Assembly (NCBI GenBank): GCA_041671045.1
Contig: JBAZCF010000006.1
Coordinates: 19,290-83,289 of the forward strand
Length of the DNA stretch: 64,000 bases
DNA from: Parachlamydiales bacterium
GTDB lineage: Bacteria; Chlamydiota; Chlamydiia; Chlamydiales; JABDDJ01
Direction: 5' to 3'
Position 1 is the first letter of the stretch, and every line of letters starts with the position of its first letter. The notes beneath the pieces were generated by a model, which saw nothing but the letters and a program-made list of their open reading frames with translations, searched no databases and was not told where the DNA came from. The position numbers were made by a program, and so were the translations under genes. This document shows, piece by piece, positions 22,240 through 41,421 of this stretch.

Positions 22240-23205
22240 TTAGGTGATTGGGTGGGGGTAGAAATTGCGGTACCAGGCGACAAAACGGCCAAGTCCTTCA
22301 TCGAGGGAGATCTTAGGGGAAAAACCTAGGTCTTTTTGACTTTTTTCGATATCGGCGTAGGTGGCGACGACATCGCCCAGCTGCATAGGTTTTTTTATGA
22401 GGATGGCTTTTCTGTTTAGGTGTTTTTCGAGGGATTCGACAAGTGACATTAATTTCTCGGGTTTGTGGTTCCCTAGGTTATACACTTCACAGGTGCAGTT
22501 TTTTTCTATGGCAGCGTCTATTCCGGCAATAATATCATCAATATAAGTGAAGTCCCGCTCCATGTTTCCGTCATTGAAGATGGAGATGGGCTGACCTGCG
22601 AGGATGGCTTTAGTGAAGCTGAAGTAGGCCATATCCGGTCTTCCCCAGGGTCCGTAAACGGTAAAAAAACGGAGGCCGGTGCTTTTTACTTTGTAGAGAT
22701 GGTGGTAGGTATATGCCATGAGTTCGTTGCATTTCTTAGTGACACCGTACAGGCTGGCTTGATGGTCAGTCCGGTCTGTGGTGTCGAAGGGAACTTTTTC
22801 ATTTAAGCCATACACGGAGGAGGAAGAGGCGTAAGTCAGGGGGATATGTGGAAATGCGCGGCAGGTTTCAAGCACATTAAGAAAACCCTCAATATTTGCC
22901 TTGATATATGCTTGCGGACATTCCGTCGAATAGCGCACTCCGGCTTGGGCAGCCAAATGGACGAGGTTATCCGGTTCGAATTCTTCCGTAATTTTCCTAA
23001 GGACTTCGTTTTCAGCAATATCGGCGCGCAGGATAGAAATGCCTTCTTTTTCGAGAAGTTCGCGTCGTTTTTCCTTTAAGAGAGGATCGTAGTAGGAATT
23101 AAAGTTATCCACTCCTAATACCGTGTTTCCTTTTTGCGCGAGGTATTTTGCTAAATGGAAGCCGATGAATCCGGCGGCGCCGGTAATAAGGATTTTTTTG
23201 CTCAT
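22240..23205 (-). CDS. NAD-dependent epimerase, UDP-glucuronate 4-epimerase-like (SDR)
   Basis: TGAAGFIGFHLAKYL Rossmann motif, HLAAQAGVRYS, YASSSSVYG, catalytic YxxxK in YGVTKKCNELMAYTY, and RFFTVYGPWGRPDMA. This is collinear with the Cap1J/LpsL-type UDP-GlcA 4-epimerases as I recall them. Confidence 0.8.
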   Translation of the reverse strand: MSKKILITGAAGFIGFHLAKYLAQKGNTVLGVDNFNSYYDPLLKEKRRELLEKEGISILRADIAENEVLRKITEEFEPDNLVHLAAQAGVRYSTECPQAYIKANIEGFLNVLETCRAFPHIPLTYASSSSVYGLNEKVPFDTTDRTDHQASLYGVTKKCNELMAYTYHHLYKVKSTGLRFFTVYGPWGRPDMAYFSFTKAILAGQPISIFNDGNMERDFTYIDDIIAGIDAAIEKNCTCEVYNLGNHKPEKLMSLVESLEKHLNRKAILIKKPMQLGDVVATYADIEKSQKDLGFSPKISLDEGLGRFVAWYRNFYPHPIT

Positions 23206-25353: not shown

Positions 25354-26452
25354 TCTATTACTCGTCATTTTTCTTGTATCCGCTTGCAGCAGGACTAACT
25401 CATTAGAGAATTTAGTGCACACGAATAGACGTCCGCAGGTGATGACGTACGAAGCGGAGTGTGTGATCGACTATGATATCTGCTGCCAGTTTGATGAGTT
25501 TCCGGCTGCTTTTCCGGAATGTGTAGAGTTTTTGCCTATAGACCATAATCCACAAATCCCTAAGGAATATGTTTTTGGAGTTGGCGACGCCTTGGATGTG
25601 GGTATATTTGGCGATGATGAGACTTATGTTGAAGATGCGACGATAGCCCCTGACGGCAACTTATATTATCTATTTCTCGATGCCATTCCTGCTGCAGGAT
25701 ATACAGTAACACAGCTTTCGCATGCTATTGCAGCGCAGCTCAATGATTTCTACGTGAATCCTTTAGTTTCTATTGTCCCTAAAACCGCTATAAACAGAAC
25801 CTTCAGCATCATCGGACGCGTCAACTATCCGGGAGTTTATCCACTTTTGGAACCTAAAAAACTGCGCGATGCCATTGCCGATGCCGGCGGCCCTATTACC
25901 ACATATTATCATGATTCATTACGTTCCGACATCTATGAATTGGCCGATTTGAAGAATTCCTTCTTAGTGCGCGACAATAAGAAGATGGCTTTGGATTTTC
26001 AAACACTGCTCCATGCGGCGGATAATTCCAGCAATGTGCCAATACTTCCTGGCGACTACATTTATATCGCTGCAGCAGAGCACCAGTACGTCTATGTCTT
26101 AGGAAATGTCTTAACACCGCAGAGAGTTTCGTATACGGAAGGATTGACTGCGATGGGTGTTTTAGCTATTGCAGGGGGGTGGAATAGCGGAACGCCTTAT
26201 TCTGCCGATCCCTCCAAGCTCTTAGTTATCCGCGGGTCGTTAAAATGTCCTTGCGTCATGCAGGTAGATTTGGATCAGGTGATGGCGGGTTTTGCACGGG
26301 ATCTTTTTGTACAGCCGGGGGACATCATCTATGCACAGGATAAAACAGTCCGTTTTGGCCGTGAGTTAGTCAGGCTAGCAATTTCAACATTCCTCCAGTC
26401 CTTTGCATCATCTGCGGGTAGTTATTGGAGCAGCATTGAATGGTTCAATTAA
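25337..26452 (+). CDS. Polysaccharide export protein, Wza-like lipoprotein (Poly_export + SLBB)
   Basis: Lipobox LVSAC, a Poly_export-like EYVFGVGDALDVGIFG, and SLBB-like turns ILPGDYIYI and VQPGDIIYA. Confidence 0.7.
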   Translation: MLRILNLLLVIFLVSACSRTNSLENLVHTNRRPQVMTYEAECVIDYDICCQFDEFPAAFPECVEFLPIDHNPQIPKEYVFGVGDALDVGIFGDDETYVEDATIAPDGNLYYLFLDAIPAAGYTVTQLSHAIAAQLNDFYVNPLVSIVPKTAINRTFSIIGRVNYPGVYPLLEPKKLRDAIADAGGPITTYYHDSLRSDIYELADLKNSFLVRDNKKMALDFQTLLHAADNSSNVPILPGDYIYIAAAEHQYVYVLGNVLTPQRVSYTEGLTAMGVLAIAGGWNSGTPYSADPSKLLVIRGSLKCPCVMQVDLDQVMAGFARDLFVQPGDIIYAQDKTVRFGRELVRLAISTFLQSFASSAGSYWSSIEWFN

Positions 26453-27672
26453 TGGCACATACTAGGTATTTTTTCATTTTTTTCGTATTGTTTGCCGGAG
26501 TTTTATGCGGGCAGGAAGAGACTTTATGGGAGCCTCCTGCAGCACCTATCAACCACATAGATCTTCCTGACATAGTCATTGAGACAATTGAGATTGGTTC
26601 ACAAGGTGCTGCTGCTTCCAATCCCCTTTTTCCTGAAGCGCCCTCAGCTTCGCCCGTTATTATAGAAGATGAGAAGCAGAAAGCCCATTCTGAGAGTGAT
26701 TCAGCAGATAGGGAAACATCCGGAGAATATCGGTTAAGGATAGGCGATACACTTGTTGTAAGTATCTATGGGGAGCCTAACTCGACTCGGACGGTGAATA
26801 TCGACCCGACGGGTTGCATGTCATTTCTCTTTGTTAATGCACTCCAAGTTAAGGGGTTGACAATTGGGGAAGCAAGGTTGGCTTTGCAGAGGAAGCTAAA
26901 GAAATATTATAAAACGCCGCTCGTCTCCATTACTTTGACAGATTATGCAGGATATTATTACTCCATTCTAGGAGAGGTCCGCCAACCGGGTAGATACCGT
27001 ATCAAAGGCCATTCGACAATTCTGACTGCCGTGGCACAATCTGCAGGATTTAAGACACAGGAATACCGTTTTGAGACATATGATCAGGCCGATTTAAAGC
27101 GTTCCTTCTTAGCTAGGAATAATGACTATTACCCTGTGGACTTTGAGCGCTTAATAAAGAGGGGTGATACTTCTCAAGACGTGGATCTAGAAAATGGAGA
27201 CTATATTTATATTGCGCCCTCCTATTTAGACAGAGTCTTTGTTTTGGGGGAGGTGCGGCGTCCCGTGTTCATCCAGTATTTGCATACCATTTCATTGGCA
27301 GAGGCGTTAGCTGAGGCTGGCGGATTGAATTTTCGCGCAAGTTCTCGTGTAGCAATATTACGGGGCTCATTATGCTCCCCTACTCAATACTTGATCGATA
27401 TCAACCGTATTTTGAAAGGGTATGCCTGTGATTTTACTCTGGAACCTGGAGATATTATCTATGTTCCTCCCTTCCGTTTTAATACGATGAAAGAGATTGT
27501 AAAAAGCGCAATCCGCACCTTCGTAGGAACGGTGGCTTCTGTTGCAGGTACGCGAGCATTTATTGCCATTACTCCCGCTGCTGATGATGCGGATTTGATT
27601 CAACCGATCCCTATTATCAACACCGGTGGGAACATCATTACCCCGGTAACGCCCTTTACACCGCAGTTTTAG
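26440..27672 (+). CDS. Second polysaccharide export protein, Wza-like
   Basis: Signal peptide, EYRLRIGDTLVVSIYGEPN (Poly_export motif), LENGDYIYIAP and LEPGDIIYVPP (SLBB). The start is at 26440, or at 26452 (TAATG overlap with the upstream stop). Confidence 0.7.
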   Translation: MVQLMAHTRYFFIFFVLFAGVLCGQEETLWEPPAAPINHIDLPDIVIETIEIGSQGAAASNPLFPEAPSASPVIIEDEKQKAHSESDSADRETSGEYRLRIGDTLVVSIYGEPNSTRTVNIDPTGCMSFLFVNALQVKGLTIGEARLALQRKLKKYYKTPLVSITLTDYAGYYYSILGEVRQPGRYRIKGHSTILTAVAQSAGFKTQEYRFETYDQADLKRSFLARNNDYYPVDFERLIKRGDTSQDVDLENGDYIYIAPSYLDRVFVLGEVRRPVFIQYLHTISLAEALAEAGGLNFRASSRVAILRGSLCSPTQYLIDINRILKGYACDFTLEPGDIIYVPPFRFNTMKEIVKSAIRTFVGTVASVAGTRAFIAITPAADDADLIQPIPIINTGGNIITPVTPFTPQF

Positions 27673-29173
27673 CCCAAGGGTTAATGCGATTGCGTTCATC
27701 CTTATCCAATAGAAGGTAAAGTAAAGGAAGGGTAACGGCAACATATAAAAAACCTGCTGTAAGGAGCTGTTTGGCAGCTTCTCCCCGATCTTTGGGCAGA
27801 TCTTGCTGGAGCATCAAAGCGATAATAACCGCTGTAATATATGGGGCAACTCCGGGCAAAAAGACCTTTTGCAGATAAATACGTTGCGAAATACCGATCA
27901 TGGAATTGCTATAGATTATGTATGCAGTAGCGGCTATGATCATGCCACCGGCAACGCCCCAGTTTATGGCTTCCAAGCTTATTCCAAAGTATTGTTTAGC
28001 AATAAAAAATCCTGCGCAGCAGATAATTAGTTGTCCGACGGCGTAATAGAGCTCTTTTCCGGGCTGTCCGGTACTTCTATAGATAGCAGATGCAGGCCCT
28101 GTTAGTGTATCCATCTGATAAGCGATTGTAAAAAAGGTCAGGATTTGAACAGCCGGACTGTATTTCTCGAGATTTCCCAACCACAGCATGATCAGAGGAA
28201 TGGCCCAAGTCCAGAGAAAGGCCAACATCAGCCCAGCTAGCATATGCAGATACCTGCCCCCTAACAGATACAATTCCACTATCCCTTCTTTCTCATTCTT
28301 AGCATGCATATAAGCTGTAGAAGGAAGAAGAACCATATTGAAGACGCCGGGGAAATTGATAGCTGCCAAAGGGATCTTCTCCCCTATATCGTAGAGGGCG
28401 GTTGTGGCTGGACCAAAGAATGTTCCTGCAAAAATCTTTTCTAGGCTGCGATTGAATACACCAAGCATGCCTGAAAGCTGTACAATTCCTCCAAAACGAT
28501 AAAATAGGTGTAATGTCGCTTTATCGAAGTCATTAAAACGGAATTTCAGTTCAGGAAGATAGATTTTACATGCTGTAAATTGAGCGGCTACAAGGTAAAT
28601 AGTGCGGATAGAGTAGGCGATAAGCAAGCTGTAGATACCATATCCTTGGTTTAGAAAAAAAAGAATCAGTAGGACTTCAAGGACAAATGCGCTTGTGCTG
28701 ATCATCCTTTCCATGGCGATTTTCTGTATGCCTTGCATGATGGCACTGAAGGCACCGAAGATTAAATCGAAGAAAAATACCAATACAGTTCCGAAGATAA
28801 GCCAAAAAGCTAAATCCAATTGTTCTAAAGGAACATTTAGCCAGATTAGGGCTTTGGGGAGGAATAAGAAGACTAAAGGGATGAGTACCAAAGCTGCTAT
28901 TGCAATAGAGAGGATGCCCGTAGACATCAACCTATTGATTGCGGGGGTGTTTTCGTGGACGTAATATTCTGCACTATATTTCACATATACATTGGCGATG
29001 CCAAAGACTGACATTCCTATATAACTGATAAGAATGAAGGCATAGGACCAGAAGCCGTATTCCTCGATTTTGACATAGCTAAGAACTAGAGGAGGAACGA
29101 TCAGTCTAGTGCCAAAAATGATGATCAGCATAGACATTGTAATAAGTACATCGCGGCTAAACTGCTTGTGCAT
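27656..29173 (-). CDS. Wzx-type flippase (MOP/polysaccharide biosynthesis protein family)
   Basis: 505 aa with ~12-14 hydrophobic helices throughout. Size and context are typical of Wzx. Its 3-prime end overlaps the convergent Wza-like gene by 17 nt. Confidence 0.65.
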   Translation of the reverse strand: MHKQFSRDVLITMSMLIIIFGTRLIVPPLVLSYVKIEEYGFWSYAFILISYIGMSVFGIANVYVKYSAEYYVHENTPAINRLMSTGILSIAIAALVLIPLVFLFLPKALIWLNVPLEQLDLAFWLIFGTVLVFFFDLIFGAFSAIMQGIQKIAMERMISTSAFVLEVLLILFFLNQGYGIYSLLIAYSIRTIYLVAAQFTACKIYLPELKFRFNDFDKATLHLFYRFGGIVQLSGMLGVFNRSLEKIFAGTFFGPATTALYDIGEKIPLAAINFPGVFNMVLLPSTAYMHAKNEKEGIVELYLLGGRYLHMLAGLMLAFLWTWAIPLIMLWLGNLEKYSPAVQILTFFTIAYQMDTLTGPASAIYRSTGQPGKELYYAVGQLIICCAGFFIAKQYFGISLEAINWGVAGGMIIAATAYIIYSNSMIGISQRIYLQKVFLPGVAPYITAVIIALMLQQDLPKDRGEAAKQLLTAGFLYVAVTLPLLYLLLDKDERNRINPWAKTAV

Positions 29174-29270: not shown

Positions 29271-29786
29271 ATGGCTGCTGACAATACAAAAATTGAATCC
29301 GTACGAGTGGCGCTGAAAAGAATTTTTGCGTTACCAGTGAATAAATCCACTTTTAGGCAAGTGCAAAATGCAGTTGCTGTGATCTTCCAAAGTGAACCTA
29401 ACCATGCAAATGAAGTATTAGAGGCGCTTTTCACAGGCAATTTTAAAAATGGGCAGGAATCGCTTAAAGGCCTTTACAAAGAATATGACGAGCAGTTAAA
29501 AGTTGCCCGCGAAGTATTTGAAAGGGGATCATTCCTAACATTGATCACTTCAGACAGACTTGCACAAGGCGATAGAGTCATGTTCAACAATCTAATCCGC
29601 AGGATCGACGGCGAGCAGATAGAGTTTATCACTGACATTGAAAGTACATTCCAGATGATAAAACACTTTATTGGAAGACTCCAGGAAGTGCAGTCATTGG
29701 ATGTAGATAAGAAGCTTAGAGAAGTTGTGAAAAATGAAATCGCTGATCTCCACCGTATGACCGACACAATAATTGCAGCGAAGTAG
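29271..29786 (+). CDS. Hypothetical cytoplasmic alpha-helical protein
   Basis: 171-aa ORF with no signal peptide. No motif was recognised. Confidence 0.5.
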   Translation: MAADNTKIESVRVALKRIFALPVNKSTFRQVQNAVAVIFQSEPNHANEVLEALFTGNFKNGQESLKGLYKEYDEQLKVAREVFERGSFLTLITSDRLAQGDRVMFNNLIRRIDGEQIEFITDIESTFQMIKHFIGRLQEVQSLDVDKKLREVVKNEIADLHRMTDTIIAAK

Positions 29787-30027: not shown

Positions 30028-31392
30028 TTATAGACCTGTCAGCTTACGGAAAGAACTGAGGGGCTTACGCATGATAAAATAAAGGAGAGAAACTTTTTCG
30101 CCATACAGAACGGCCGTTCCTTTTAGACCTAAGCGGGCCTGGTTCTTTTCGTCTTCCCATTTTGCTTCTGCGATGAAACTAGGGATTTGGCTTTCAGCTA
30201 TCAGGCTTTCATTGGCGATATAGTTGATTCTCGCCAGATGAGTCACTTCCGGTTCGATATTCAAATATACACGTACGGGCTCTTCTAGGTTAAGGGGAAT
30301 GTTATCGCTTTCAGGAATCCAAATACGTACTATTGTATCATTAGGCTCGCTGATGGTTAGGATTTTTTCACCTACCTTAACAGGTTTTCCACGCCATTCT
30401 TCCGGACTTTGTAAGATCACTACGCCGCCAAATGGAGCTTGTATGTCCAACCTCCCTTTCTGATAAACGGCTTGTTGAAAGCGGATCTTCGCCTTCTCTA
30501 ACTTTAGGGTAAGCACTGATATTTCTGTTTGGGAAAGAGTATCTTGCAGCCCTAAGGTCATGGAACGGTTCAATTCTTCTTGAGCAATCTCGACTTCTTT
30601 CTGCGCAGCTTTATATTCTTGGTCGGGAATTTCTTTGTCGTAAAGCGCAAGAAGTTCATCCGCTTTCACTAATTGTCCTGGTTTGACCACGATGCTATCG
30701 ATGACACCATCCAGAGGAGCTTTTACTACAATAGGATTACGTGGAACAACCTCACAAGGCGCAACAACACGGAGAGGGATCTGGATCACGAGACCTGTCA
30801 ACAAAAGTAAACTTCCCAGCCAGAGAAGGCTTTTCTTATTGATGCGCTGTCTCCAAGGACGCCATGCAACGCCGAATTTCTCCCAGGCACTCGTATATCC
30901 CGGGAAAAGACAAGAGGAAACGATCTCTAGGGCATCGTTATTTTTTTCGTAATATTCTTCAGTAGAGATATTCCATGACTCTAACCAAACACCTACACGT
31001 GGTTTTACGTCCTGTAAGGGGAACCAAAATATTGTTTTTTTTGTATCGCCAACAAACTTCTCCCAGGCATCGGACTGTGTGTTGAAGCTGTCTTTATTGA
31101 TAACTTGAGGCTTGTCAGGCTCTTTAATATCGGCGACAAGTTTTTCTATCTGTTTGGACAATGCAGAGCGTTCGTTAACTCCTATTTGTCCTGAAGCGCA
31201 GGTGAGAACGGGACGGCTGTCCCATTCCCATAACAGTGCACGGTCATAAGGGAGTACGACTTTGGTGTCGTTTACAATTAGAAATCGCAGTGCCTCACGG
31301 GTAGGCACATTGAATGACTTAATTAATAAACGATTCGAAATCAGGAGATGGGTTGAAACCCCTGATTTAATTTCTCTCTTCGTTTGTACCAC
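30028..31392 (-). CDS. HlyD-family membrane fusion protein with ~185-aa cytoplasmic N-terminal domain
   Basis: 454 aa with a single TM (LLWLGSLLLLTGLVIQI). A barrel-sandwich/lipoyl-like motif APLDGVIDSIVVKPGQLVKADELLALYD follows, then a coiled coil, then APFGGVV. Confidence 0.7.
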   Translation of the reverse strand: MVQTKREIKSGVSTHLLISNRLLIKSFNVPTREALRFLIVNDTKVVLPYDRALLWEWDSRPVLTCASGQIGVNERSALSKQIEKLVADIKEPDKPQVINKDSFNTQSDAWEKFVGDTKKTIFWFPLQDVKPRVGVWLESWNISTEEYYEKNNDALEIVSSCLFPGYTSAWEKFGVAWRPWRQRINKKSLLWLGSLLLLTGLVIQIPLRVVAPCEVVPRNPIVVKAPLDGVIDSIVVKPGQLVKADELLALYDKEIPDQEYKAAQKEVEIAQEELNRSMTLGLQDTLSQTEISVLTLKLEKAKIRFQQAVYQKGRLDIQAPFGGVVILQSPEEWRGKPVKVGEKILTISEPNDTIVRIWIPESDNIPLNLEEPVRVYLNIEPEVTHLARINYIANESLIAESQIPSFIAEAKWEDEKNQARLGLKGTAVLYGEKVSLLYFIMRKPLSSFRKLTGL

Positions 31393-32221
31393 TCTTCTTT
31401 CTCATGTAACCGATATCTTGCTTCGGTAAATGTGCTGCCTGTGTTTGAGATAGCTGGGTCAATCCTGTCATACCTACGCGAAGTTTGTCGTCGCTATTAT
31501 CAATCTCTGCTTCAGCTTTGAAAGTGGAACTTGAGGGGTCGATAACGGATCCAACACGTGTGATTTTACCTGTGACGGTTTCGCCTGTCTCTCTAATTTT
31601 AATAGAGATAGGATCACCCACTTTTACTTTGGTATAATAGCTTGAGGGCAGCAATAGACGAGCGCGAAGAATAGAATCATCAATAATTTCTACGATTTTT
31701 TTCCCAGGCTGTGGTAACTCATGTTCTTCAACAGCAAGTTCAACAACTTTGCCGGAATAAGGAGCTTTTATACTTGTTGCTCTGAGATTTTTGTTTGCCA
31801 AAATAACATCGGCGTAAGCACTTGCTACGTTAGCTTCTGCTTCTTTCAGTTCAAACAATGAGGCAATTTTTTCTCTGTACAACTGCTCTTTAGCAGAAAA
31901 CTCTGTTTTAGCACGTGCTAAGATAGCTTCTGCTTTCAGGCGGTTTGCTTCCAGCACTGTAGGGTCTTGCAGAATGAGAATATCTCCTTCATTGAAAGAA
32001 TCGCCCATACGGAAGTTGATTTTACTTACCGGGAATTCTACTTCTGCAGATAGCTGAGTACGATAGTAAGGATCTAAAATAACACGAAAAAGTTTTGTCT
32101 GCTCTTGAGGCTCGACTTCAGGTGTTAAAGTTGTATCAAGTGAACACAGACTTCCTGGGTAGCTAAGAGCAGCTCCGCTGATCCACATCCCAATGACTAA
32201 ATTCCGTAAGATGTTATGCAT
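31367..32221 (-). CDS. HlyD/RND-adaptor family membrane fusion protein
   Basis: 284 aa with a signal/anchor, MGDSFNEGDILILQD, a coiled-coil hairpin (ANRLKAEAILARAK...), and IKAPYSGKVVELAVEE plus VGDPISIKI beta-barrel motifs. Confidence 0.75.
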   Translation of the reverse strand: MHNILRNLVIGMWISGAALSYPGSLCSLDTTLTPEVEPQEQTKLFRVILDPYYRTQLSAEVEFPVSKINFRMGDSFNEGDILILQDPTVLEANRLKAEAILARAKTEFSAKEQLYREKIASLFELKEAEANVASAYADVILANKNLRATSIKAPYSGKVVELAVEEHELPQPGKKIVEIIDDSILRARLLLPSSYYTKVKVGDPISIKIRETGETVTGKITRVGSVIDPSSSTFKAEAEIDNSDDKLRVGMTGLTQLSQTQAAHLPKQDIGYMRKKSGTNEERN

Positions 32222-32240
32222 AAAAGTTACCCTTTGTTTA

Positions 32241-34121
32241 TCAATAGTTGTGCGATGGGTTCATAAATTCATCGAAGTCCGGATCATATTGCAAATCACT
32301 TCCCTCTGGGGTCCTGATTGGTTCGGATCGATCAAAGTTTTGTTCAGGAACATATCCTGGCTCTAGCATGCTCCTTTCAGTAGAATCTACATCCCAAGTA
32401 TTCGTTGAAGGTAACTTATAAGAAGGATCATACTGTGATCCTGCGCCTTCTCCGGAGGAGGATTTCAGCCATGACTCATTTTTATTAACTGAAGATGATG
32501 TTTGCTGCGGCAAACGGAAATCTGTATCCAAAGGGTTGTCATTTTGCGTGTCTTTGGGGAGATTGATATCCGATTTGTAGTTCATCATATCGCGCAGGGA
32601 AGGAAAATCCTGCATTAAAGGAGGCAATGCCTGCTGTTCAGATTGAGTATAACCTTCCATTACGTCTTTCATTTCATCTTCTTCTTCGCAATCACATGGG
32701 CATCCATCTTGGTTTGTAATATACCCTGGAATACCCAGAGCATTATTTAACTGCTCGATAGATATTTGCGCTTCGCCATAGGCTTTAAGGGCGTCAATTT
32801 CAGCGAATAGGGCATCTGCTTGGAATTTGATCACATCCGCAGCATGCAATCTACCGGCTTTTTGTTCCTTTTCCGCAGCGTTTAGGATTGTAGCATATGT
32901 TTCCTTCAAGTCATTTACAATTTTGAAGGATTTGAAGTTATCCATATATGTCAGGTGGGATAAGTGGACTTGGGTAATCACGCCGACAGAGACAGCTAAT
33001 CTGTTGTGTCTGGCTAGAACTTGGCGCCATCTTGCTCCCCTTTCATTCACTAGCTGGCGTGGAATTTGGAAGAGGTTCCATGTAGCACGTAAACCGGCCT
33101 GAATCCAGTGGTTATAGATAAGGAATGAGTTGGTATCATTGTAGTTACCGGCGAAAAGCTCTGCACTGGGGAACATTTGCAGAACGGCAATTCTAGCTTC
33201 TTCCACCATGACTTGTTCTTGCAGATCTCCGATATATAATTCGGGACGATTTTTAAGAGCGCATTTCTCGTATTCACAGATATCGATATTTTTCAGGCAA
33301 GGAAGAGGTTCAATGCAAGGTTCAGCCAATTCAAAAGTTAGGCAAGGAGGCAGAGCCATAAATTGGCTTAATGCCATTATAGCTTCATGATAGTCCCTAG
33401 CATATTTTTGAATATCCCTTTCGATATTCAGCAATAGCGTTTTAGCAACAAGGCCTTTTTGGACAGGAATAAGTTGTTCTTGGATTTGTCTAACAAAAAC
33501 AGCGGCTTTGCTCTTGGCAGAACGCAGCAGACGGCGTCCTTTTTCGATCGCGTGTTTTGAAGCAATGGCTTTCCAGTATTGTTTTGTAATATCCAGGACT
33601 AAGTTTTGTTTTAGCCTTTCGTATTCCATGCGAATGATCAGGCCTTTGTCGGCTTCTTGTGCTGAACGATAGTAGGCAAGACCGAAGTCAAGAAGGTTCC
33701 ATACAGCATAGAAGTTGTAGAGTGTACGTGCTCGCGTTGCGGAGATACTTGGAGGAGCAGGGGGTATTCCAGGGGATAATGATTGGGAGAAGGATCCGGT
33801 ATTGTTATTTCTATCACTGCTATCCACGCTTGCTATTAAGCTAGGAAGCATCTTAAGTCTTTCACCCGTAACGACTTCTCTTTGAACTTCATATTCATAG
33901 AGCTTAACCATTGCATCTAGGTTTTGCTCTAGAGCAATTTCAATAATATCGCAAAGTGAAAGAGGTCGTAATGGAAGATTAGTTCTTAGATTTAATTCTT
34001 CATACTCAAACTCTGCATTAAACTCTCGTGATCCATCATCTATATATGGATTATGATAGCATCCTGAGAGAAGAGTACTTGCTAGTAATGCGAAAAAAAT
34101 ACGTTTCATGTTGTTACTCAA
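32241..34121 (-). CDS. TolC-family outer-membrane factor lipoprotein with ~150-aa acidic C-terminal extension
   Basis: 626 aa with lipobox LLSGC. Two OEP-type helical repeats are present (AVWNLLDFGLAYY..., ATWNLFQIP...). A low-complexity tail follows ...PCDCEEEDE. Confidence 0.7.
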   Translation of the reverse strand: MSNNMKRIFFALLASTLLSGCYHNPYIDDGSREFNAEFEYEELNLRTNLPLRPLSLCDIIEIALEQNLDAMVKLYEYEVQREVVTGERLKMLPSLIASVDSSDRNNNTGSFSQSLSPGIPPAPPSISATRARTLYNFYAVWNLLDFGLAYYRSAQEADKGLIIRMEYERLKQNLVLDITKQYWKAIASKHAIEKGRRLLRSAKSKAAVFVRQIQEQLIPVQKGLVAKTLLLNIERDIQKYARDYHEAIMALSQFMALPPCLTFELAEPCIEPLPCLKNIDICEYEKCALKNRPELYIGDLQEQVMVEEARIAVLQMFPSAELFAGNYNDTNSFLIYNHWIQAGLRATWNLFQIPRQLVNERGARWRQVLARHNRLAVSVGVITQVHLSHLTYMDNFKSFKIVNDLKETYATILNAAEKEQKAGRLHAADVIKFQADALFAEIDALKAYGEAQISIEQLNNALGIPGYITNQDGCPCDCEEEDEMKDVMEGYTQSEQQALPPLMQDFPSLRDMMNYKSDINLPKDTQNDNPLDTDFRLPQQTSSSVNKNESWLKSSSGEGAGSQYDPSYKLPSTNTWDVDSTERSMLEPGYVPEQNFDRSEPIRTPEGSDLQYDPDFDEFMNPSHNY

Positions 34122-34142
34122 GAGCTAAGGAGTTAAACTTTT

Positions 34143-34171
34143 TTGATTTTAATGCAATAAATACATAAATT
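34143..34171 (+). promoter_or_regulatory. Candidate promoter in the divergent TolC-operon / M50 gene intergenic region
   Basis: TTGATT-17 nt-TAAATT in a 76-bp AT-rich divergent intergenic region. Confidence 0.25.
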
Positions 34172-34197
34172 TTATTTTTTATTGTATAAAAATTATT

Positions 34198-36318
34198 ATG
34201 ACAAGTATTTTCTTTAGTTCAGAAACCCCTCTTCCTGCTTTTCGCCAGGATCTTCAGGTCTTTCGTGGACCTGACGAGAAGGATGGCTATCCAAGCTATT
34301 CCTTATTTGATCCTATCATGGGCCAATATTTCCGCCTTTCATGGTCTGAACTCACCATAATGAAAGCTTTAAAGCCGGGCATGACTCCGGAATTGCTCCA
34401 CGAATATTTGTTAGCAAATACTACTTTAAAACCGACCATCGAACAGCTTAAAATGTTCTTTGAAAGTGCGGGAGCTCGGCATCTTCTGGATGTAAAGCTT
34501 TCTTCGGAACATTTTTATTTGCAGGCAGTTAGGAAAAAAGGAAATTGGTTCTGGTGGGTACTGATGCATTATCTCTATTTTCGTTTGCATTTGACAAATC
34601 CTTCCAGCTTTTTAAAGCGAACACTCCCTTATGTTTCCTTCTTAGCAACTAAGACGATGTTTGTGCTTTATGCCATCCTCACGATCTACGGGTTGTCTTT
34701 AATTTTTTCCAAATGGGATACCTATTTTGCGACACTTTTGTACTTTTTCAGTGTATCCGGGGCTTTAGCGTACGGGTTGGCTATAATCCTTGTTAAAATC
34801 ATCCATGAATTAGCACATGCCTATACGGCAGCTTACTTCAACGTCAGGGTCCCCTCTATGGGAGTGGCGTTTATCGTGATGTGGCCTGTATTATATACGG
34901 ATGTGACGGATGGATGGCAGTTACGGAAAAGGAGTGAGAGGTTTTTCATATCGGCTGCGGGCATTATTGCAGAGACAATTATTGCCGGCTTAGCAACGAT
35001 AGGGTGGTCTTTTTCCGAGCCCGGCATTTTTCAAAGTATGTGTTTTATAGTCTCCACTTCTTCGTGGGCATCCACCTTAATGATCAACTTGAATCCTGCG
35101 ATGAGATTTGACGGCTATTTCTTATTAAGCGACATGTGGGGAATAGACAATTTGCAGGAACGGGCCTTCCGTTACACCCGCTGGAAATTGCGTTATTTGT
35201 TTTTGGGTGTGGATATGCCCAATCCTGAAGAAGAATTAGCTGAAAGCCATGCTTTTGGATTAATAGTTTATACTATTTATACCTGGATTTATCGATTTAT
35301 TTTATACGCTGTTATTGCGGTCTTTGTTTACTATGCGTTTACAAAGGCTTTAGGCATTTTCTTATTCATTTTAGAGGTAGCGGTTTTTATTTTATGGCCG
35401 CTTTTTAGTGAAATCAAAGATAGCGCAAGATTGTGGAAGATGTTTCATTTAGGAAAAAGACAAAAAATCATTTGGGGCATCATAGGACTAATTCTTGCAT
35501 GGATTGTACTTCCATTGCCCCACCAAGAGTCTGCTACAGGTGTAGTCGTCCCTACAGAGCTCGAAGGGGTATATGTCCCTGAAGCATCAAAAGTGAAAAA
35601 TGTTAATGCGAAAATCAATGATCCGGTGGAAAAAGATCAGACTTTAGTTAGTTTAGATTCTACACCGCTTAATTTATACCTCAAAGAGCTGGAAGCTCAG
35701 ATGGAACTGATACAGAAACAGATCGATACTCTCGAAGCGACTGAAGATAAGAAGTCCTATGTTCCCGGTAAGCAGGCTGAGCTGTCAACAACTAAGGAAA
35801 AGTATATCGGCGCTAAAGAAAGGATGAACAATCTTGAGATCAAGGCCAAAAGCTCCGGCGAGCTGTATCAGTGGAACAGATATATGTACCCTGGACAGTA
35901 TTTAGAAGGCGGGACACTCATTGGTAAGATAGCTGACATCAAAGACCTAAAGATTGTTACCCTCATCCCGGAGATACTGCTTAATAAAATACAAGTAGGC
36001 TATAGCGCAACATTTTGGGTACCTAGCACGGAAGGGTATTATCCTGGCGAAGTGACTAAAATCGAGCCTTTTAGAACAGATAATTTGAAATACCCTCAAT
36101 TAGCTTCTATCTATCATGGAGAGATTGCAACAGTGGAGAAAAATTCCCGATTGGAACTTGTCGACACGTATTACACAGTTGAGGTCAAATTAAATCCCGC
36201 CCAGAAGCTACCTATAGGAACTATAGGTTATATACGCTGGCATGGACCCTTTTCATCACTCCTCTATGACTGGATCAAGAAGGTCCGCAGCATTGTTGTG
36301 CGTGAGAGCGGATTCTAA
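34198..36318 (+). CDS. Site-2-protease (peptidase M50) fused to a C-terminal HlyD-like periplasmic adaptor domain
   Basis: 706 aa. HELAH is at 34804-34818 and the second S2P motif is NLNPAMRFDGYF. Several TM helices are followed by a coiled coil (LELIQKQIDTLEATEDKK...) and beta-barrel motifs (IKAKSSGELY, VGYSATFWVP). Confidence 0.75.
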   Translation: MTSIFFSSETPLPAFRQDLQVFRGPDEKDGYPSYSLFDPIMGQYFRLSWSELTIMKALKPGMTPELLHEYLLANTTLKPTIEQLKMFFESAGARHLLDVKLSSEHFYLQAVRKKGNWFWWVLMHYLYFRLHLTNPSSFLKRTLPYVSFLATKTMFVLYAILTIYGLSLIFSKWDTYFATLLYFFSVSGALAYGLAIILVKIIHELAHAYTAAYFNVRVPSMGVAFIVMWPVLYTDVTDGWQLRKRSERFFISAAGIIAETIIAGLATIGWSFSEPGIFQSMCFIVSTSSWASTLMINLNPAMRFDGYFLLSDMWGIDNLQERAFRYTRWKLRYLFLGVDMPNPEEELAESHAFGLIVYTIYTWIYRFILYAVIAVFVYYAFTKALGIFLFILEVAVFILWPLFSEIKDSARLWKMFHLGKRQKIIWGIIGLILAWIVLPLPHQESATGVVVPTELEGVYVPEASKVKNVNAKINDPVEKDQTLVSLDSTPLNLYLKELEAQMELIQKQIDTLEATEDKKSYVPGKQAELSTTKEKYIGAKERMNNLEIKAKSSGELYQWNRYMYPGQYLEGGTLIGKIADIKDLKIVTLIPEILLNKIQVGYSATFWVPSTEGYYPGEVTKIEPFRTDNLKYPQLASIYHGEIATVEKNSRLELVDTYYTVEVKLNPAQKLPIGTIGYIRWHGPFSSLLYDWIKKVRSIVVRESGF

Positions 36319-39222
36319 AATTTCGGAAGGGTACATCTTTTCAACAAGAAGATTCAGTCCCGAAATATGCTTTTTGAGACCTTCCAAAGTGTTTTTGTAG
36401 TCATTATCTATACAATATTCAATAATCTGCTCTAACTGATGATGAATTTTGAGAGTTCTGGAAGGTTGAAGCTGCATTTTCCAATAGAGTTTACAAAGAT
36501 CTGTTTGCAGTTGGACATCAGATTCGATTTCTACTTTTGCAGCCATGTTCATAGGAAAAAGAAAGTAGACTAACCACTCCTTTACAAAGAAGAACTGGCT
36601 TAGTTGAGAGAGGATATTATGTCCGATTTTACCCTTTTTATCTAAGGGAGCTAGAATATCTTTCAGCGTTTTACCATCTGAATACGGCGTATGTAAGTAT
36701 TGGAGCCATTGCTGATGTGGAATCAAGTGAGAAACCTCGCATAGGACTCTCCACACACCCACTGCGCTGTCCCAATTTGCGGCTTCATCCTCTAAGATTT
36801 TGTTAACAATTTCTTCAACAACTCCCCTTAAATATGTTTTGAAATCGGGACAGAGAATCAACCAAGCTTGGAAGAAAATTTTTGTTTCATACTCAATAAT
36901 AGAATGCAGGATATCAAAATCAAATGTGTTAGATTTGATCAGGTGATAAATCTTTGTTAAGTATCCATCGGCAAGTGGTTCAGGATCAATCTTTAAACTA
37001 GCGGCTTTTATTAGATGGATTTTGAGTTTCAATACTTCCAACCATTGTTGAGAACGTAGCTTTTCCAGTTTAGTTACCGAGGCAAGATCTAACTCTAACG
37101 CTGACCTAGTATTTTCAATGATTGATTTAAGACCGTCTACTGTTTCAGGCACAGCCATTGACTGAGCATATAGTTCAGAATAGTTTTGTTTGAAGTACTC
37201 CAGGACAGGAAGAGCATTCTGAGATGAGAAATGAAGCAAAGAAATGCCCTTTTCGCCCTTCAATAAAAGACTTTCAGGATTGAGGTCAACGATATATTTA
37301 AGCACCCCATACCACTCTTCTTTAATGGCAATAAAAAAGAGGGTTACGCGACGTGCAGAATTATTCACATTATACTCAATGATATTCTTACTATACTCCG
37401 GATATTTCTTAAGGAGGTATAATGCCTTTTCTTCATTCATGCATTCTAAAGTGAATAGATAGCCCGCCTTCTCATTGCTGCAAAGCGGCAGCATTTGGTC
37501 GAGAAGATCAAACTGTTCAGCTTTCAATACCTGGGTGAAATCTAAAGAATTAAAAATGTCTTGTTGTTCATCAAGATTTAAAAATAGCGCGTTAAAATGG
37601 AACAGCCAAAGTTTATATTTAGATTCATCGGTAATTAAAGGAGATTCGAATAAGTCGGAATGGGCAATAGCTATTTCGTTCCAACCAAACTTCTTCGCAA
37701 AATCTTCAACAAAAACCTCAATTTCTTTTTTGAACAATGCTAAGAAGGTTTGATTACTATTTTCTTTAAGAAAGCTCCAGAAATTTTTACCTTCAAATAA
37801 TGTAGAGTTAAGTTCGCAAGCATTAGCGAGTGAGCAGAAGGAATATGCAGCAATTTTAGCATCCCCTAAGTTAACCGCATCAGCATTATCTAACTTGACT
37901 GTATCCGCATCATCAAATTCATCTGCAACAGTATTCCCTGATTTAACACCCTCTTCATCCCTATTTGCAGATTTATTTCTGACTATATCTATAAGAGTCC
38001 TTACTTCTTTGCCTGCATCAAAAGCCATTGTGCTTAGGGAGTGTACTTCTTCCAAACCTTCGGATAGCATTGAGAGTATTTCAGGGCCAAAGTTGAAGAG
38101 GGTTAGCTTTGAAATAAATTTCTTCCGAACTGATTCCGATGTGAAATCTACATTCTCTTTGAGTCCACGGATAAAGTGATCTCTAGCTGTATACAGCCCT
38201 GAAACATGGGTATATTTTATTAATGACAAGTATATAATATCAGCATAATGGAGGAGTTTTCTGAAATCAGAGTACTGAAAATTGAAGATCTCAAAATAAG
38301 TTAAAATGGTTTTAAGAGGAGTTTCAGAACTACCCCAACCGTCTTCCGTCGCAATTTCATTTCTGTAACCTCTTTTAATATTCTCTAAAAGGGTTTTATC
38401 CTCTTTCTCTTCACTCTGCAATAGATATGCGATCACATGGCGGTACTGATTAGCATTCGTTAGATTACGTTCCTCAAGAAGAGGTGCATTAAGTACCCTT
38501 ATGTATCTTTTATCCCCTTGATTTTTCAAGTGGTGAAAAAAAAAGCTAAGGATAGTTAAAGAAGCATCTTCAGGAAGAATAAGATCTACATATTCAAGTT
38601 TAGAAGCAAGATGGTCTGCTAGTATCCTCGTTTTTTCAATTGAGATGTAATCAAACTGTCTAAAAAGTGCTTCGAATACTCCCACTCTGAAATCCAAATC
38701 TACAGCATTAAAAAATTCGCTCGATAAAAGAGTCTTTAGCTGTGTGTCGGATCCTATCTTACATACTTGAAATATGAGTTCGGGCAGATAATCTGAATTT
38801 TCATGTGCTAATAATAATAGAGACTCCAGGCCTAAATTTTGGTTCTTGGAAATTTCCTTATAAAAATCGCTTAAATACAAGTTAAGGGTGCTTTGCAATC
38901 CTTCAAGTTGAGTTTTCAAAGCCCCTTCAATAGAAATAGTGTTAGATAAAGTGTGGGTTTTTGCAAGAAAACGTGTAAGTTTTTCCTTACTTAAAGGAGC
39001 TGTTTTTTCTATTCTTATATTCCAACGTTGGAGAATGGCGGAGGAGATGTTTTGTTCTGTAAAGAGAAATTGGTTAGTTTTTACTGAAAGGTAAATTCTC
39101 TTTGCAAACTTATATAAGACTGAAGGAAGGTTAAAAAATAGTTGAAAGCGACTGTTAGAGACTGGAAAAAACAGAGAAATTAACTCAGAACTTTTATTAT
39201 TAACAAGATCAACTTTCGACAT
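36256..39222 (-). CDS. Large hypothetical protein (988 aa), AT-rich, helical
   Basis: Long uninterrupted ORF with no signal peptide or TM. No confident motif was recognised. Its 3-prime end overlaps the convergent M50 fusion gene by 63 nt. Confidence 0.6.
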   Translation of the reverse strand: MSKVDLVNNKSSELISLFFPVSNSRFQLFFNLPSVLYKFAKRIYLSVKTNQFLFTEQNISSAILQRWNIRIEKTAPLSKEKLTRFLAKTHTLSNTISIEGALKTQLEGLQSTLNLYLSDFYKEISKNQNLGLESLLLLAHENSDYLPELIFQVCKIGSDTQLKTLLSSEFFNAVDLDFRVGVFEALFRQFDYISIEKTRILADHLASKLEYVDLILPEDASLTILSFFFHHLKNQGDKRYIRVLNAPLLEERNLTNANQYRHVIAYLLQSEEKEDKTLLENIKRGYRNEIATEDGWGSSETPLKTILTYFEIFNFQYSDFRKLLHYADIIYLSLIKYTHVSGLYTARDHFIRGLKENVDFTSESVRKKFISKLTLFNFGPEILSMLSEGLEEVHSLSTMAFDAGKEVRTLIDIVRNKSANRDEEGVKSGNTVADEFDDADTVKLDNADAVNLGDAKIAAYSFCSLANACELNSTLFEGKNFWSFLKENSNQTFLALFKKEIEVFVEDFAKKFGWNEIAIAHSDLFESPLITDESKYKLWLFHFNALFLNLDEQQDIFNSLDFTQVLKAEQFDLLDQMLPLCSNEKAGYLFTLECMNEEKALYLLKKYPEYSKNIIEYNVNNSARRVTLFFIAIKEEWYGVLKYIVDLNPESLLLKGEKGISLLHFSSQNALPVLEYFKQNYSELYAQSMAVPETVDGLKSIIENTRSALELDLASVTKLEKLRSQQWLEVLKLKIHLIKAASLKIDPEPLADGYLTKIYHLIKSNTFDFDILHSIIEYETKIFFQAWLILCPDFKTYLRGVVEEIVNKILEDEAANWDSAVGVWRVLCEVSHLIPHQQWLQYLHTPYSDGKTLKDILAPLDKKGKIGHNILSQLSQFFFVKEWLVYFLFPMNMAAKVEIESDVQLQTDLCKLYWKMQLQPSRTLKIHHQLEQIIEYCIDNDYKNTLEGLKKHISGLNLLVEKMYPSEILESALTHNNAADLLDPVIEE

Positions 39223-39282: not shown

Positions 39283-40230
39283 TTACCAAGGAATTTCGGG
39301 TGAAATCTTCCCGCGATGCGTGGACTTCCAGGCATCTTTATAGAGATTGAGAAGTAATATCGTCTCCTCATATTTAAGTTTGTTGGTCCAATTTTTCAGA
39401 AGCCGCAGATATTGCCATCCATTTTCCAGCAGATATGAAGACCAAGCTCCTAACCTTCCATAATGCTTTCTATAATAGAGGTATGTGCTTTGAAAACGCC
39501 ATAGGCCTACTTGTCGTGCTGCAGTAATATGCTTCCCCTCGATAGCTTGCAGGGAAGCGCTTCCCAAATGAATAGAAGTCAGATCCTGCCAATAGCGGAT
39601 GGTGCCATACTGTTCCTTAAGGGTGCGGCAAAGATCCACCTCCTCGAAATACATGAAAAAGCGTTCATCAAATCCGGCGCACGCCATCAGCAGATTTCTA
39701 CGAATTATGACAAACGCACCAGGAACCCAATCAGGATAAGGACATTGCTCGTAGGAATGATTTTTAAATAAGCCTATACGCTGGACTAGGTCACGCCAGG
39801 GTGTGGGAAAAAAGCGGCTGGAAATTTGCGGTCTACCCTCTCCACTCATCAGCTGTATACCTCCGGCAGCGACTCCTCTCTCCCTTTCCATGCGCTTTAA
39901 TGCTTCCTTTAGCACTCCGTTATGCAAAAGAAGGTCGCTGTTGATAAGTACTACGTAAGTACCTGTAGCGTGCTGAAATGCCAGATTATTCGCTGCAGCA
40001 AAACCTAAATTTATGGGTGAAAGTATGAGGGTGAATTGTGGAAATTCGTTTTTAACCATATCAGCGCTATCGTCAGTGGAGGCATTATCCACTAGGATGA
40101 CCTCGGCTGAAAGATCTTCAATTTCTGAAGCTACCCTCTTCAAACATTGGTAAAGGATATTACTGGTATTAAACGAGATGATGACAATGGAAAGGACTGG
40201 GATATTGTTCGTACCGGATCTGGCAGACAT
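39283..40230 (-). CDS. Glycosyltransferase family 2 (rhamnosyltransferase/WbbL-like type)
   Basis: LSIVIISFNTSNIL...VILVDNASTDDS, LINSDLLL (DxD-like) and GAFVIIRR. Confidence 0.75.
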   Translation of the reverse strand: MSARSGTNNIPVLSIVIISFNTSNILYQCLKRVASEIEDLSAEVILVDNASTDDSADMVKNEFPQFTLILSPINLGFAAANNLAFQHATGTYVVLINSDLLLHNGVLKEALKRMERERGVAAGGIQLMSGEGRPQISSRFFPTPWRDLVQRIGLFKNHSYEQCPYPDWVPGAFVIIRRNLLMACAGFDERFFMYFEEVDLCRTLKEQYGTIRYWQDLTSIHLGSASLQAIEGKHITAARQVGLWRFQSTYLYYRKHYGRLGAWSSYLLENGWQYLRLLKNWTNKLKYEETILLLNLYKDAWKSTHRGKISPEIPW

Positions 40231-40284
40231 AGGGAACTCGATTTTCTTGCAAAATTGCAGTTTCTACTATTTATTTCAATCCAC

Positions 40285-41421
40285 TTATTTCTTATCCCTA
40301 TCGGTACGCACCCATTCCGCATCGGATTTGGCGGCTTTAAAAATATCTTTAAGCAATGTGAGTTTCCATAGAATATAAAAAGGGGCTGAAGCAAGAACCC
40401 AAAGATCTGAAAGCTGCCCTTTCAATGCGATGGACGTTAAAATGTGCAATGCTAAAAGTAGAAATGAGAATATTGCCGCGGTAGGCCAAAAGAAAGCTAG
40501 TGGAATAAGCAAAAGCGCATAATAAGCTAAAGGAAGAGATGTCAACTCGAAAAGTGGTTCTAAAGTATGCCAGTTTCCATGAAAAGTTTCTTCCACTAAC
40601 CTAGGAAAAAGCTCCCTAGCAACTCTTAGCCGTCCCCCTTCCCACCGTGCTCTTTGTGTCGCTGCACCTTTTCCTTGTATAGGGGCTGAGGCATAAGCGG
40701 CTGTCTCGTCGCAAAAGAAAACCTGTATTTTAGCTTGGACCAGCGCGCAGTGGTACCATAGATCTTCTGCTATAGCATGAGTATCAAAAGGCACTTGCAG
40801 CAGGACAGAGCGATGAAGGGCAAAACCTAAACCTAGTATGCCGCAGGATAGGCCTAAACGCGAGCGTCCTCTAGGCCTGAGGTAGTTCATAGAGTAGAAA
40901 GCCACCCGCATAAGTTTTTGGCGCCAATGAGATGCGGATTTATCCATTCCGTAATAGGCCTGTATTGCAGATACACCTTTTTGCGCATATGCTTGTAAGG
41001 AGGCTATGAAGTTCGGTTCCACAATACAGTCTGCATCTAACACAACAAACCAATCGAAATCTTCTTTAAGAAGAATATCAAAGGCATAATGCAAAGCCTT
41101 ATTTTTACCTCTATTCAGAGTATCGATCCTTTCAATCACTCTATAACCCATTTTTCTTGAGATCTCTGCTGTTGCATCATTGCAATTGTCTGCAATAACG
41201 ATTACCTCTGCCTGAATTGCATTAGCCTTTAAGCTATGAAGCAGATGTGCAATTTGTGTTTCTTCATTATGGGCTGGAATAACAATGACCCATTTACCTT
41301 CCAGAGGCTCTTTTTGAGCAATATTCCTGCGTGGCAGCAGCGCCCCTATAGTCACAATAAGGAGTTCTACTGTTGTAGGCAGAAGGATTAGAAAGATTAA
41401 CCAGCCCATTAGATCGCTCAT
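40285..41421 (-). CDS. Membrane-embedded glycosyltransferase family 2 with Q-R-x-R-W motif (synthase-like)
   Basis: N-terminal TM, VIVIPAHNEE, VVLDADC, QRARWEGG, then C-terminal TM helices. This resembles PgaC/cellulose-synthase-type GT2 topology. Confidence 0.7.
   Translation of the reverse strand: MSDLMGWLIFLILLPTTVELLIVTIGALLPRRNIAQKEPLEGKWVIVIPAHNEETQIAHLLHSLKANAIQAEVIVIADNCNDATAEISRKMGYRVIERIDTLNRGKNKALHYAFDILLKEDFDWFVVLDADCIVEPNFIASLQAYAQKGVSAIQAYYGMDKSASHWRQKLMRVAFYSMNYLRPRGRSRLGLSCGILGLGFALHRSVLLQVPFDTHAIAEDLWYHCALVQAKIQVFFCDETAAYASAPIQGKGAATQRARWEGGRLRVARELFPRLVEETFHGNWHTLEPLFELTSLPLAYYALLLIPLAFFWPTAAIFSFLLLALHILTSIALKGQLSDLWVLASAPFYILWKLTLLKDIFKAAKSDAEWVRTDRDKK

Follow-up and report, generated by a model that had tools for sequence, protein, structure and literature searches.

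Among described systems, those functionally most similar to the one proposed here are the peptidase-containing ATP-binding cassette (ABC) transporters, or PCATs, which act together with a membrane fusion protein (MFP, a periplasmic adaptor) and an outer-membrane factor (OMF), as in CvaAB-TolC, which serves colicin V, and RaxAB-RaxC. The subject of this work is a four-gene system at positions 30028 to 36318 of a 64-kb stretch of DNA from a metagenome-assembled genome of a Parachlamydiales bacterium; this whole stretch is referred to below as the window, and all unprefixed coordinates are window positions. The system encodes a TolC-family OMF, two separate MFPs and a fusion of an M50 (site-2) protease to a third MFP domain. 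It resembles the PCAT assemblies in placing a leader peptidase within a tripartite conduit that includes an MFP and a TolC-family channel and, as we propose, in removing a leader during export. It differs from them in that an M50 metalloprotease takes the place of the C39 cysteine protease and is fused to an adaptor rather than to an ABC transporter, no ABC domain being present, and in that its cargo would be a giant multidomain protein with an LEPR-XLL leader rather than a small double-glycine peptide.

The protease core is homologous to that of the daptide protease (NF041824) and of YydH/LiaK (NF058609), families whose known enzymes cleave leaders from cytoplasmic precursors at the membrane. 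Those enzymes, however, are stand-alone, Gram-positive proteins which act on short peptides, rely on separate ABC exporters and have no MFP domain. SpoIVFB, which processes pro-sigma-K, is of the same M50 type and clips a short N-terminal extension from a protein other than a classical transmembrane (TM) substrate, but it serves sporulation signalling, carries a CBS domain and has neither an adaptor domain nor a link to export. The LapA/LapG/LapD system with LapEBC shares with ours a giant repetitive adhesin together with a TolC-family channel, N-terminal proteolysis (proposed in the present case) and an inner-membrane protein with a cytoplasmic sensor-like domain. In contrast, LapG is a periplasmic cysteine protease of the BTLCP type, and Lap export needs an ABC transporter and a C-terminal repeats-in-toxin (RTX) signal, neither of which is found in the system described here. 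TriABC-OpmH, like our system, has more than one MFP paralog per assembly, and MacA and EmrA, the adaptors of MacAB-TolC and EmrAB-TolC, are with MexA the best structural matches of the MFP domains reported below. TriABC-OpmH, MacAB and EmrAB are built round a pump of the resistance-nodulation-division (RND), ABC or major facilitator superfamily (MFS) type, whereas here three MFP-type proteins occur and no pump. Since it has no energised inner-membrane transporter, the system falls outside the definition of a tripartite pump or of a type I system; it is a conduit of the tripartite type in which a fused site-2 protease stands where a pump would be.

Because it adjoins their genes in other bacteria, the system is probably the processing and export machine of giant LEPR-XLL proteins. 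We put at roughly 0.5 the probability that the four genes form a dedicated envelope-spanning apparatus for such surface or secreted proteins. Neither the fusion family nor a link between it and LEPR proteins turned up in a literature search, in agreement with a first-pass annotation of this DNA, which had described the architecture as one without an experimentally established function.

The four-gene system

Calling of open reading frames (ORFs) returned the four genes at the sizes given in the first-pass annotation, together with the 26-nt overlap of the two MFP genes (31367-31392). On the minus strand lie the OMF (32241-34121, 626 aa, TTG start), the small MFP (31367-32221, 284 aa) and the large MFP (30028-31392, 454 aa, GTG start), while the fusion gene (34198-36318, plus strand, 706 aa) diverges from them across an intergenic region of 76 nt (34122-34197). 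This region had been taken for an AT-rich promoter region. Its length and composition hold (G+C about 16%, counted on the printed sequence), whereas a sigma-70 consensus scan found no site within the 76 nt, overall counts being at the level of shuffled sequence. The promoters of both transcription units presumably lie here.

The 706-aa fusion is 100% identical to an NCBI entry from a Parachlamydiales bacterium, named "site-2 protease family protein". Its Pfam matches to Peptidase_M50 (PF02163; 35.6 bits, cut-off 27.2), HlyD_D23 (30.8, cut-off 30) and HlyD_3 (24.0, cut-off 22.2) all exceed their cut-offs, so that the domain composition read from the translation is borne out by profiles. An AlphaFold2 model built on 32 diverse relatives, with a mean pLDDT (predicted local distance difference test score) of 87.9, comprises three strands followed by three helices at residues 14-100 or so, a helical membrane core whose last TM helix spans 420-437, and a module of lipoyl, hairpin and barrel parts. 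Both site-2 protease motifs lie, as had been claimed, in hydrophobic helices, at the ends of these. HELAH, the zinc-binding and catalytic motif (34804-34818, plus strand), occupies residues 203-207 within helix 186-213, and NLNPAMRFDG, which represents the second motif NxxPxxxxDG (35086-35115, plus strand), occupies residues 297-306. In an alignment of 32 relatives, down to 30% identity, H203, E204, H207, N297, D305 and G306 are invariant. The positive-inside rule, applied to the sequence and the modelled helices with their basic loops (207-249, 298-354, 404-423) and short loops (172-180, 273-276, 381-384), predicts an N-in, C-out topology with seven TM helices. This topology would put both catalytic motifs at cytoplasmic ends, HELAH at that of TM2 and NLNPAMRFDG at that of TM4, and the adaptor domain in the periplasm.

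The predicted periplasmic domain (residues 443-706; 35524-36315, plus strand) is made up of a lipoyl/barrel-sandwich part, an alpha-hairpin (489-544) and a beta-barrel. Its earlier description as MFP-like agrees with the Pfam matches above and with Foldseek, for which the best matches in the PDB are MacA (E = 2.9e-14), EmrA, ZneB and MexA, with E-values from 3e-14 to 1e-9. The protein ends, after an amphipathic helix, in a conserved (R)ESGF (36301-36318) of which E703 is invariant and S704 nearly so. The fusion is accordingly predicted, from residue conservation and modelling, to be an M50 protease with an intact catalytic site that faces the cytoplasm and is covalently joined to a periplasmic adaptor.

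Among NCBIfam profiles the M50 half is closest to leader peptidases of peptides which are synthesised ribosomally and modified post-translationally (RiPPs). The daptide HExxH protease profile (NF041824) matches residues 43-396, reaching into part of the N-terminal region, with 145.9 bits (E = 1.7e-42); this is under the equivalog cut-off of 300, which makes the fusion a homologue of the daptide protease and not a member of its family. A match to YydH/LiaK (NF058609) has an E-value of 3e-8, and the nearest solved structure by sequence is SpoIVFB (8vjl, E = 0.008). Neither C39 nor ABC domains were found in any of the four proteins with Pfam and NCBIfam.

The N-terminal cytoplasmic domain of the fusion (residues 14-100 approximately; 34237-34497, plus strand) is modelled as strands at 20-24, 33-38 and 43-47 followed by helices at 49-57, 64-74 and 81-93, with pLDDT values of 85-91, and relatives share the motif LPxLRxDL..GP..DG.PT...DP...Y.KI.W.E in it. 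Judged on this topology, the domain is probably a PqqD-like RiPP recognition element (RRE). At the sequence level, one of 28 members matches PqqD (PF05402) weakly (E = 4.5e-4), a profile search of the PDB gives the lasso RRE TbiB1 at an E-value of 1.7 only, and the N-domain of the window's own fusion has no sequence match to PqqD or RRE families.

The 626-aa OMF matches OEP (PF02321) in two stretches with 99.2 bits in Pfam; its N-terminus is lipobox-like (...LLSGC), with a weak match to LPAM_1. Beyond the OEP repeats it carries an acidic, Pro/Ser/Asn-rich, low-complexity C-terminal extension of about 150 aa (residues 480-626 or thereabouts; 32241-32680), and OMF length in other loci varies widely, from 439 to 932 aa. 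The 284-aa MFP is matched by TIGR01730 (RND_mfp; 128.7 bits, cut-off 94.9) as well as by HlyD_3 and HlyD_D23, the two Pfam families which also recognise the 454-aa large MFP. The latter is modelled (pLDDT 86.8 overall) with a cytoplasmic alpha/beta N-domain of about 185 aa, one TM helix (189-207) and a periplasmic MFP domain, which Foldseek finds MacA/MexA-like. Its N-domain has no sequence match in Pfam or the PDB; in the model its helices and strands follow a GAF-like order, and a fold search with the full-length protein returned adaptors only. The domain is nevertheless kept across phyla: used by itself as a BLAST query, it retrieves partners in 17 loci, which belong to Planctomycetota, Nitrospirota, Desulfobacterota, Lentisphaeria and Pseudomonadota. 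The large MFP, too, ends in a conserved helix (...RKPW..R).

Conservation of the operon and absence of a pump

A HMMER scan of 1.84 billion cluster representatives (50%-identity clusters) placed 10,491 proteins in the fusion family at E ≤ 0.001; with the threshold tightened to E ≤ 1e-30, 2,868 clusters remained. Among the matches listed, relatives are mostly full-length (about 700 aa) down to some 30% identity. A single-sequence scan of genome contigs for relatives found none, and an alignment-based pattern scan of one genome per species confirmed them in at least 529 species. They occur in Chlamydiota, Planctomycetota, Nitrospirota, Desulfobacterota, Lentisphaeria, Verrucomicrobiota and Alpha-, Beta- and Gammaproteobacteria; carriers include cultured Pseudomonas, Stutzerimonas, Rhizobium, Methylobacterium, Thalassospira and Terasakiella, and SAR11 single-cell genomes. 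Pseudomonas thivervalensis DSM 13194, P. nitroreducens NBRC 12694, Stutzerimonas stutzeri CLN100 and Methylobacterium adhaesivum DSM 17169 are culturable strains with the system.

ORF maps of 84 related loci reveal a recurrent co-directional block, found across phyla, of an OMF, an MFP of about 260 aa, an MFP of about 450 aa and the fusion of about 710 aa. In the window and in other Chlamydiales all four are present as well, the fusion gene being divergently oriented. The pairing of fusion, MFP and OMF genes seen in the window recurs elsewhere: an OMF adjoins the fusion in 51 of the 84 loci, a small MFP of orthologous size occurs in 55, and at least one MFP stands beside the fusion in 37 of the 41 well-flanked loci, with two or more in 33. 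Fusion ORFs of 821-1103 aa were called in six loci (L021, L049, L067, L024, L039 and L043), some of which have no adjacent MFP or OMF; these may be variant architectures or artefacts of crude start-codon calls.

The first-pass annotation had reported no inner-membrane transporter at the locus, and Pfam and NCBIfam scans of the window flanks found no ABC, RND or MFS gene, the neighbours being polysaccharide-export and glycosyltransferase genes. Nor did ABC_tran, ABC_membrane, ACR_tran, MFS_1 or any other transporter family rank among the 25 commonest Pfam families in the 124 ORFs immediately flanking the blocks, where the top family, HATPase_c, occurred five times. ABC-like ORFs in fusion-centred loci were set aside as candidate pumps, being short (235-369 aa) and non-recurrent, and those beside LEPR genes were rejected on their Pfam assignment to UvrA or ABC-F. 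No ABC exporter was found beside any of about 160 fusion-centred and LEPR-centred loci. Because no cognate ABC, RND or MFS transporter recurs beside orthologous clusters (about 80 loci from many phyla), the absence of a pump gene is a property of the fusion family and no local accident.

Linkage to giant LEPR-XLL proteins

Proteins with an LEPR-XLL N-terminus include some of the largest proteins known. A 2026 preprint on giant LEPRxLL-bearing proteins states that known transport signals are missing from them. When neighbouring ORFs were clustered all against all, a single widely shared family emerged besides the four system genes, and this consists of giant ORFs. The giant gene neighbours the system in 49 loci, directly upstream of the OMF or directly downstream of the fusion, and a giant or LEPR ORF lies within 10 kb in 32 (84%) of the 38 loci of at least 20 kb. 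In all giants whose N-terminus is in view, a basic stretch of 2-78 residues comes first and leads into L-E-(P/S/E/K)-R-(I/L/Y)-(M/L/V)-(F/L)-D-(G/A)-A-A. A regular expression for this motif matched in 33-36 of 83 loci, and each time the match lay 2-78 aa into a very long ORF; a reversed-sequence control gave one match. The motif corresponds to NCBIfam LEPR-XLL (NF012209), whose profile scored 15-19 bits for three of the six N-termini examined; two of these scores exceed the cut-off of 17.

The association was also examined from the opposite side, by scanning metagenomes with a profile of LEPR+DUF4347 N-termini. Of the 80 loci obtained, 25 have a visible fusion and 44 at least one system component; among loci of at least 10 kb, a component is present in 29 of 42 (69%), and in many of the remaining loci the giant gene exceeds the available sequence. 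The linkage of the system to LEPR-leader proteins is tight and runs in both directions. It extends to two Chlamydiales loci in which the same four genes stand beside DUF4347 giants of 4,034 aa (...LEERVVLDAS) and 4,486 aa (...LEDRIVLDGA).

The giants range from 1,000 to more than 3,500 aa and combine DUF4347 (PF14252) with cadherin, bacterial Ig, LamG, C-type lectin and beta-helix domains, a make-up which, on domain content, points to adhesin-like, extracellular proteins. RTX repeats were found in the last 600 residues of two of 64 large ORFs with complete C-termini; both are DUF4347 proteins without an LEPR motif and without the system in view, and six complete giants had no HemolysinCabind match. 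A conserved motif, h-[ST]-x-Q-L (for example GLSEQLR or GLTQQLQ), occurs in 20 of 52 giants, such as those at L020:9-8660, L029:1695-8576, L108:6179-15328 and L160:9911-18811 (locus identifier and position in the locus), at a distance of 13-39 residues from the C-terminus. With 0.0125 occurrences expected per 80 residues, this is about 30-fold above background, and the motif may be a second, C-terminal signal or anchor.

Two observations concern DUF4347 itself. Firstly, DUF4347 proteins at L133:9932-14641 and L167:486-4544 matched only from profile residue 79 or so, with no LEPR leader aligned; they carry GGxGxD RTX repeats in large number, and no M50 system is in view beside them, which suggests that DUF4347 also occurs on classical type I substrates. 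Secondly, an alignment of this domain from LEPR proteins (L010-L066) contains a nearly invariant H-G (ISHG) and, about 44 residues further on, an invariant Y-G-C, and also keeps GADVAAS.D.TG and GGDW.LE. The domain might self-process, since this His/Cys spacing resembles that of clan-CD (caspase/CPD-like) cysteine peptidases; the two Nitrospira paralogs (L011, L016) are without the His.

Proposed role and alternative explanations

If the four genes do serve LEPR giants, the following sequence of events may be envisaged. The cytoplasmic N-domain of the fusion would bind the leader, that is, the basic stretch and the ensuing LE(P/S/E)R-x-x-(F/L)-D-G-A-A. The M50 site at the cytoplasmic face of TM2 and TM4 could then remove or trim this leader, much as RiPP peptidases and SpoIVFB do with N-terminal extensions. 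The fusion's MFP domain together with the large and small MFPs, whose architecture is apparent from the matches above, would assemble into an adaptor ring docking the TolC-like OMF, with the consequence that processing would be physically coupled to passage out of the cell. More speculatively, the cytoplasmic alpha/beta domain of the large MFP might act in gating, as a second module that binds cargo or a signal. The inner membrane might be crossed through the oligomeric fusion itself, driven by proton-motive force or by folding outside the cell, or with the help of an unlinked partner.

The first of these options would amount to a new secretion pathway of diderm bacteria, in effect a further type of secretion system, in which a fusion oligomer, two adaptors and a TolC-like channel recognise the LEPR leader, cleave it and pass giants across both membranes without ABC, Sec or a known ATPase. 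Its carriers would number hundreds of species, ranging from Chlamydiota to Pseudomonas and SAR11. We offer this stronger version tentatively and regard it as doubtful. Were pump-less export true, it would call into question the rule by which tripartite conduits require an ABC, RND or MFS motor, and site-2 proteases would gain a role in secretion beyond the one in signalling. The proposal of a conserved four-gene partner for the LEPR leader is a hypothesis which can be tested in culturable Pseudomonas, Stutzerimonas, Rhizobium and Methylobacterium; as far as Chlamydiota are concerned, it directs attention to an unstudied path for proteins of the surface or of host interaction.

Several points weigh against a role in processing and exporting giants. 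Secretion of a protein larger than 1,000 aa is not known to proceed without either an ATPase or Sec, and neither is encoded in the operon. No giant gene is seen in six of the 38 long loci, in the window or in the relative whose fusion is 82% identical to the window's, and in this Parachlamydiales genome the four genes sit within a polysaccharide locus of about 35 kb. The conserved C-terminal motif in some 40% of giants could be a genuine export signal for another machine. The assignment of the N-domain as an RRE is weak at the sequence level, and the role as a whole has been deduced from gene neighbourhood, homology and predicted structure. As regards the window, the apparatus is complete and the cargo gene is not within the 64 kb: an LEPR-like motif occurs in no frame, even with a loosened pattern, and a homology search for a Parachlamydiales cargo with the chlamydial LEPR+DUF4347 profile gave three matches only.

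The alternative that survives best, which we nonetheless consider unlikely, is that the system is an accessory for retention and release. Export of the giant would begin with its C-terminus and make use of an unlinked type I (ABC) exporter or some other machine, and the fusion would hold the giant's LEPR leader at the inner membrane and cleave it to release or mature the adhesin, analogous to the action of LapG and LapD on LapA. The adhesin-like nature of the cargo, the occurrence of h-[ST]-x-Q-L at the position of a type I secretion signal in those 20 of 52 giants, the sensor-like cytoplasmic domain of the large MFP and the lack of any energy source in the operon would all fit such an arrangement. 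It accounts poorly, however, for an OMF of the system's own and three MFP-type domains, which are conduit hardware beyond what a mere protease would call for; no ABC exporter was detected next to the 160 or so loci, and the system-linked giants are without RTX repeats.

The genomic surroundings suggest another reading, in which the four genes serve the local exopolysaccharide locus, the MFPs and OMF forming a conduit for a polymer or lipid-linked product and the protease acting as a regulator. On family matches this locus extends from about 11185 to 47556. One flank of the system holds genes for Wzc-like (23311-25353), two tandem Wza-like (25337-26452 and 26440-27672) and Wzx-like (27656-29173) proteins, and farther upstream YjbH (11185-13371), a glycosyltransferase (GT)-like protein (19784-20959) and an epimerase (22240-23205). 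The other holds two GT2 genes (39283-41421), GT4 (43633-44850), Wzy_C (44837-46282) and a second GT4 (46270-47556). The relative with the 82%-identical fusion shares this context, and in another chlamydial locus a flippase-like gene adjoins the system. Polysaccharide genes are, however, not among the recurrent neighbours in other phyla, two other Chlamydiales loci have DUF4347 giants beside the system instead, and the locus already possesses a Wza/Wzc export route of its own. We therefore judge a function in polysaccharide export improbable.

Another question is whether the cargo might be a small peptide, matured and exported in the manner of a RiPP or bacteriocin, with the M50 peptidase replacing the C39 domain and the precursor gene unlinked or unannotated. 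The preference of the M50 half for RiPP leader peptidase profiles, the RRE-like topology of the N-domain and the single PqqD match would fit this. Neither a conserved small ORF nor a RiPP-tailoring family is found among the recurrent neighbours, however; the conserved neighbour is instead a giant with a conserved leader of its own. The window itself holds no LEPR-like motif in any frame. This possibility we consider very improbable. The first-pass annotation had suggested that cleavage is coupled to export of a peptide or protein, and of this the coupling gains from the RiPP-peptidase-like M50 half and from the linkage to leader-bearing proteins, while the likely substrate is a giant LEPR-XLL protein and not a small precursor peptide.

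Least probable is RseP-like regulated intramembrane proteolysis in signalling or quality control beside an ordinary MFP/OMF efflux module with its pump elsewhere, for although M50 proteases classically act in signalling and Peptidase_M50 is the only protease family matched in Pfam, the covalent fusion of protease and adaptor domain is seen in thousands of clusters, and neither sigma or anti-sigma genes nor a pump recur nearby.

Other features of the window

No Rfam family or tRNA was found in the window. A 988-aa ORF without a family match (36256-39222, minus strand) is convergent with the fusion gene, the two sharing 63 nt at the 3' end of the latter. It appears to be fast-evolving, since the relative with the 82%-identical fusion has a counterpart of only 36% identity. 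This ORF was considered as cargo and rejected, being a fast-evolving helical protein with no LEPR-like motif; it is possibly a chlamydial effector. On the other side of the system, directly beside the large MFP gene, lies a gene for a CT_584-like protein of the chlamydial type III secretion-associated family (29271-29786, plus strand), which keeps its place in the 82%-identical relative (L086:4567-5082).

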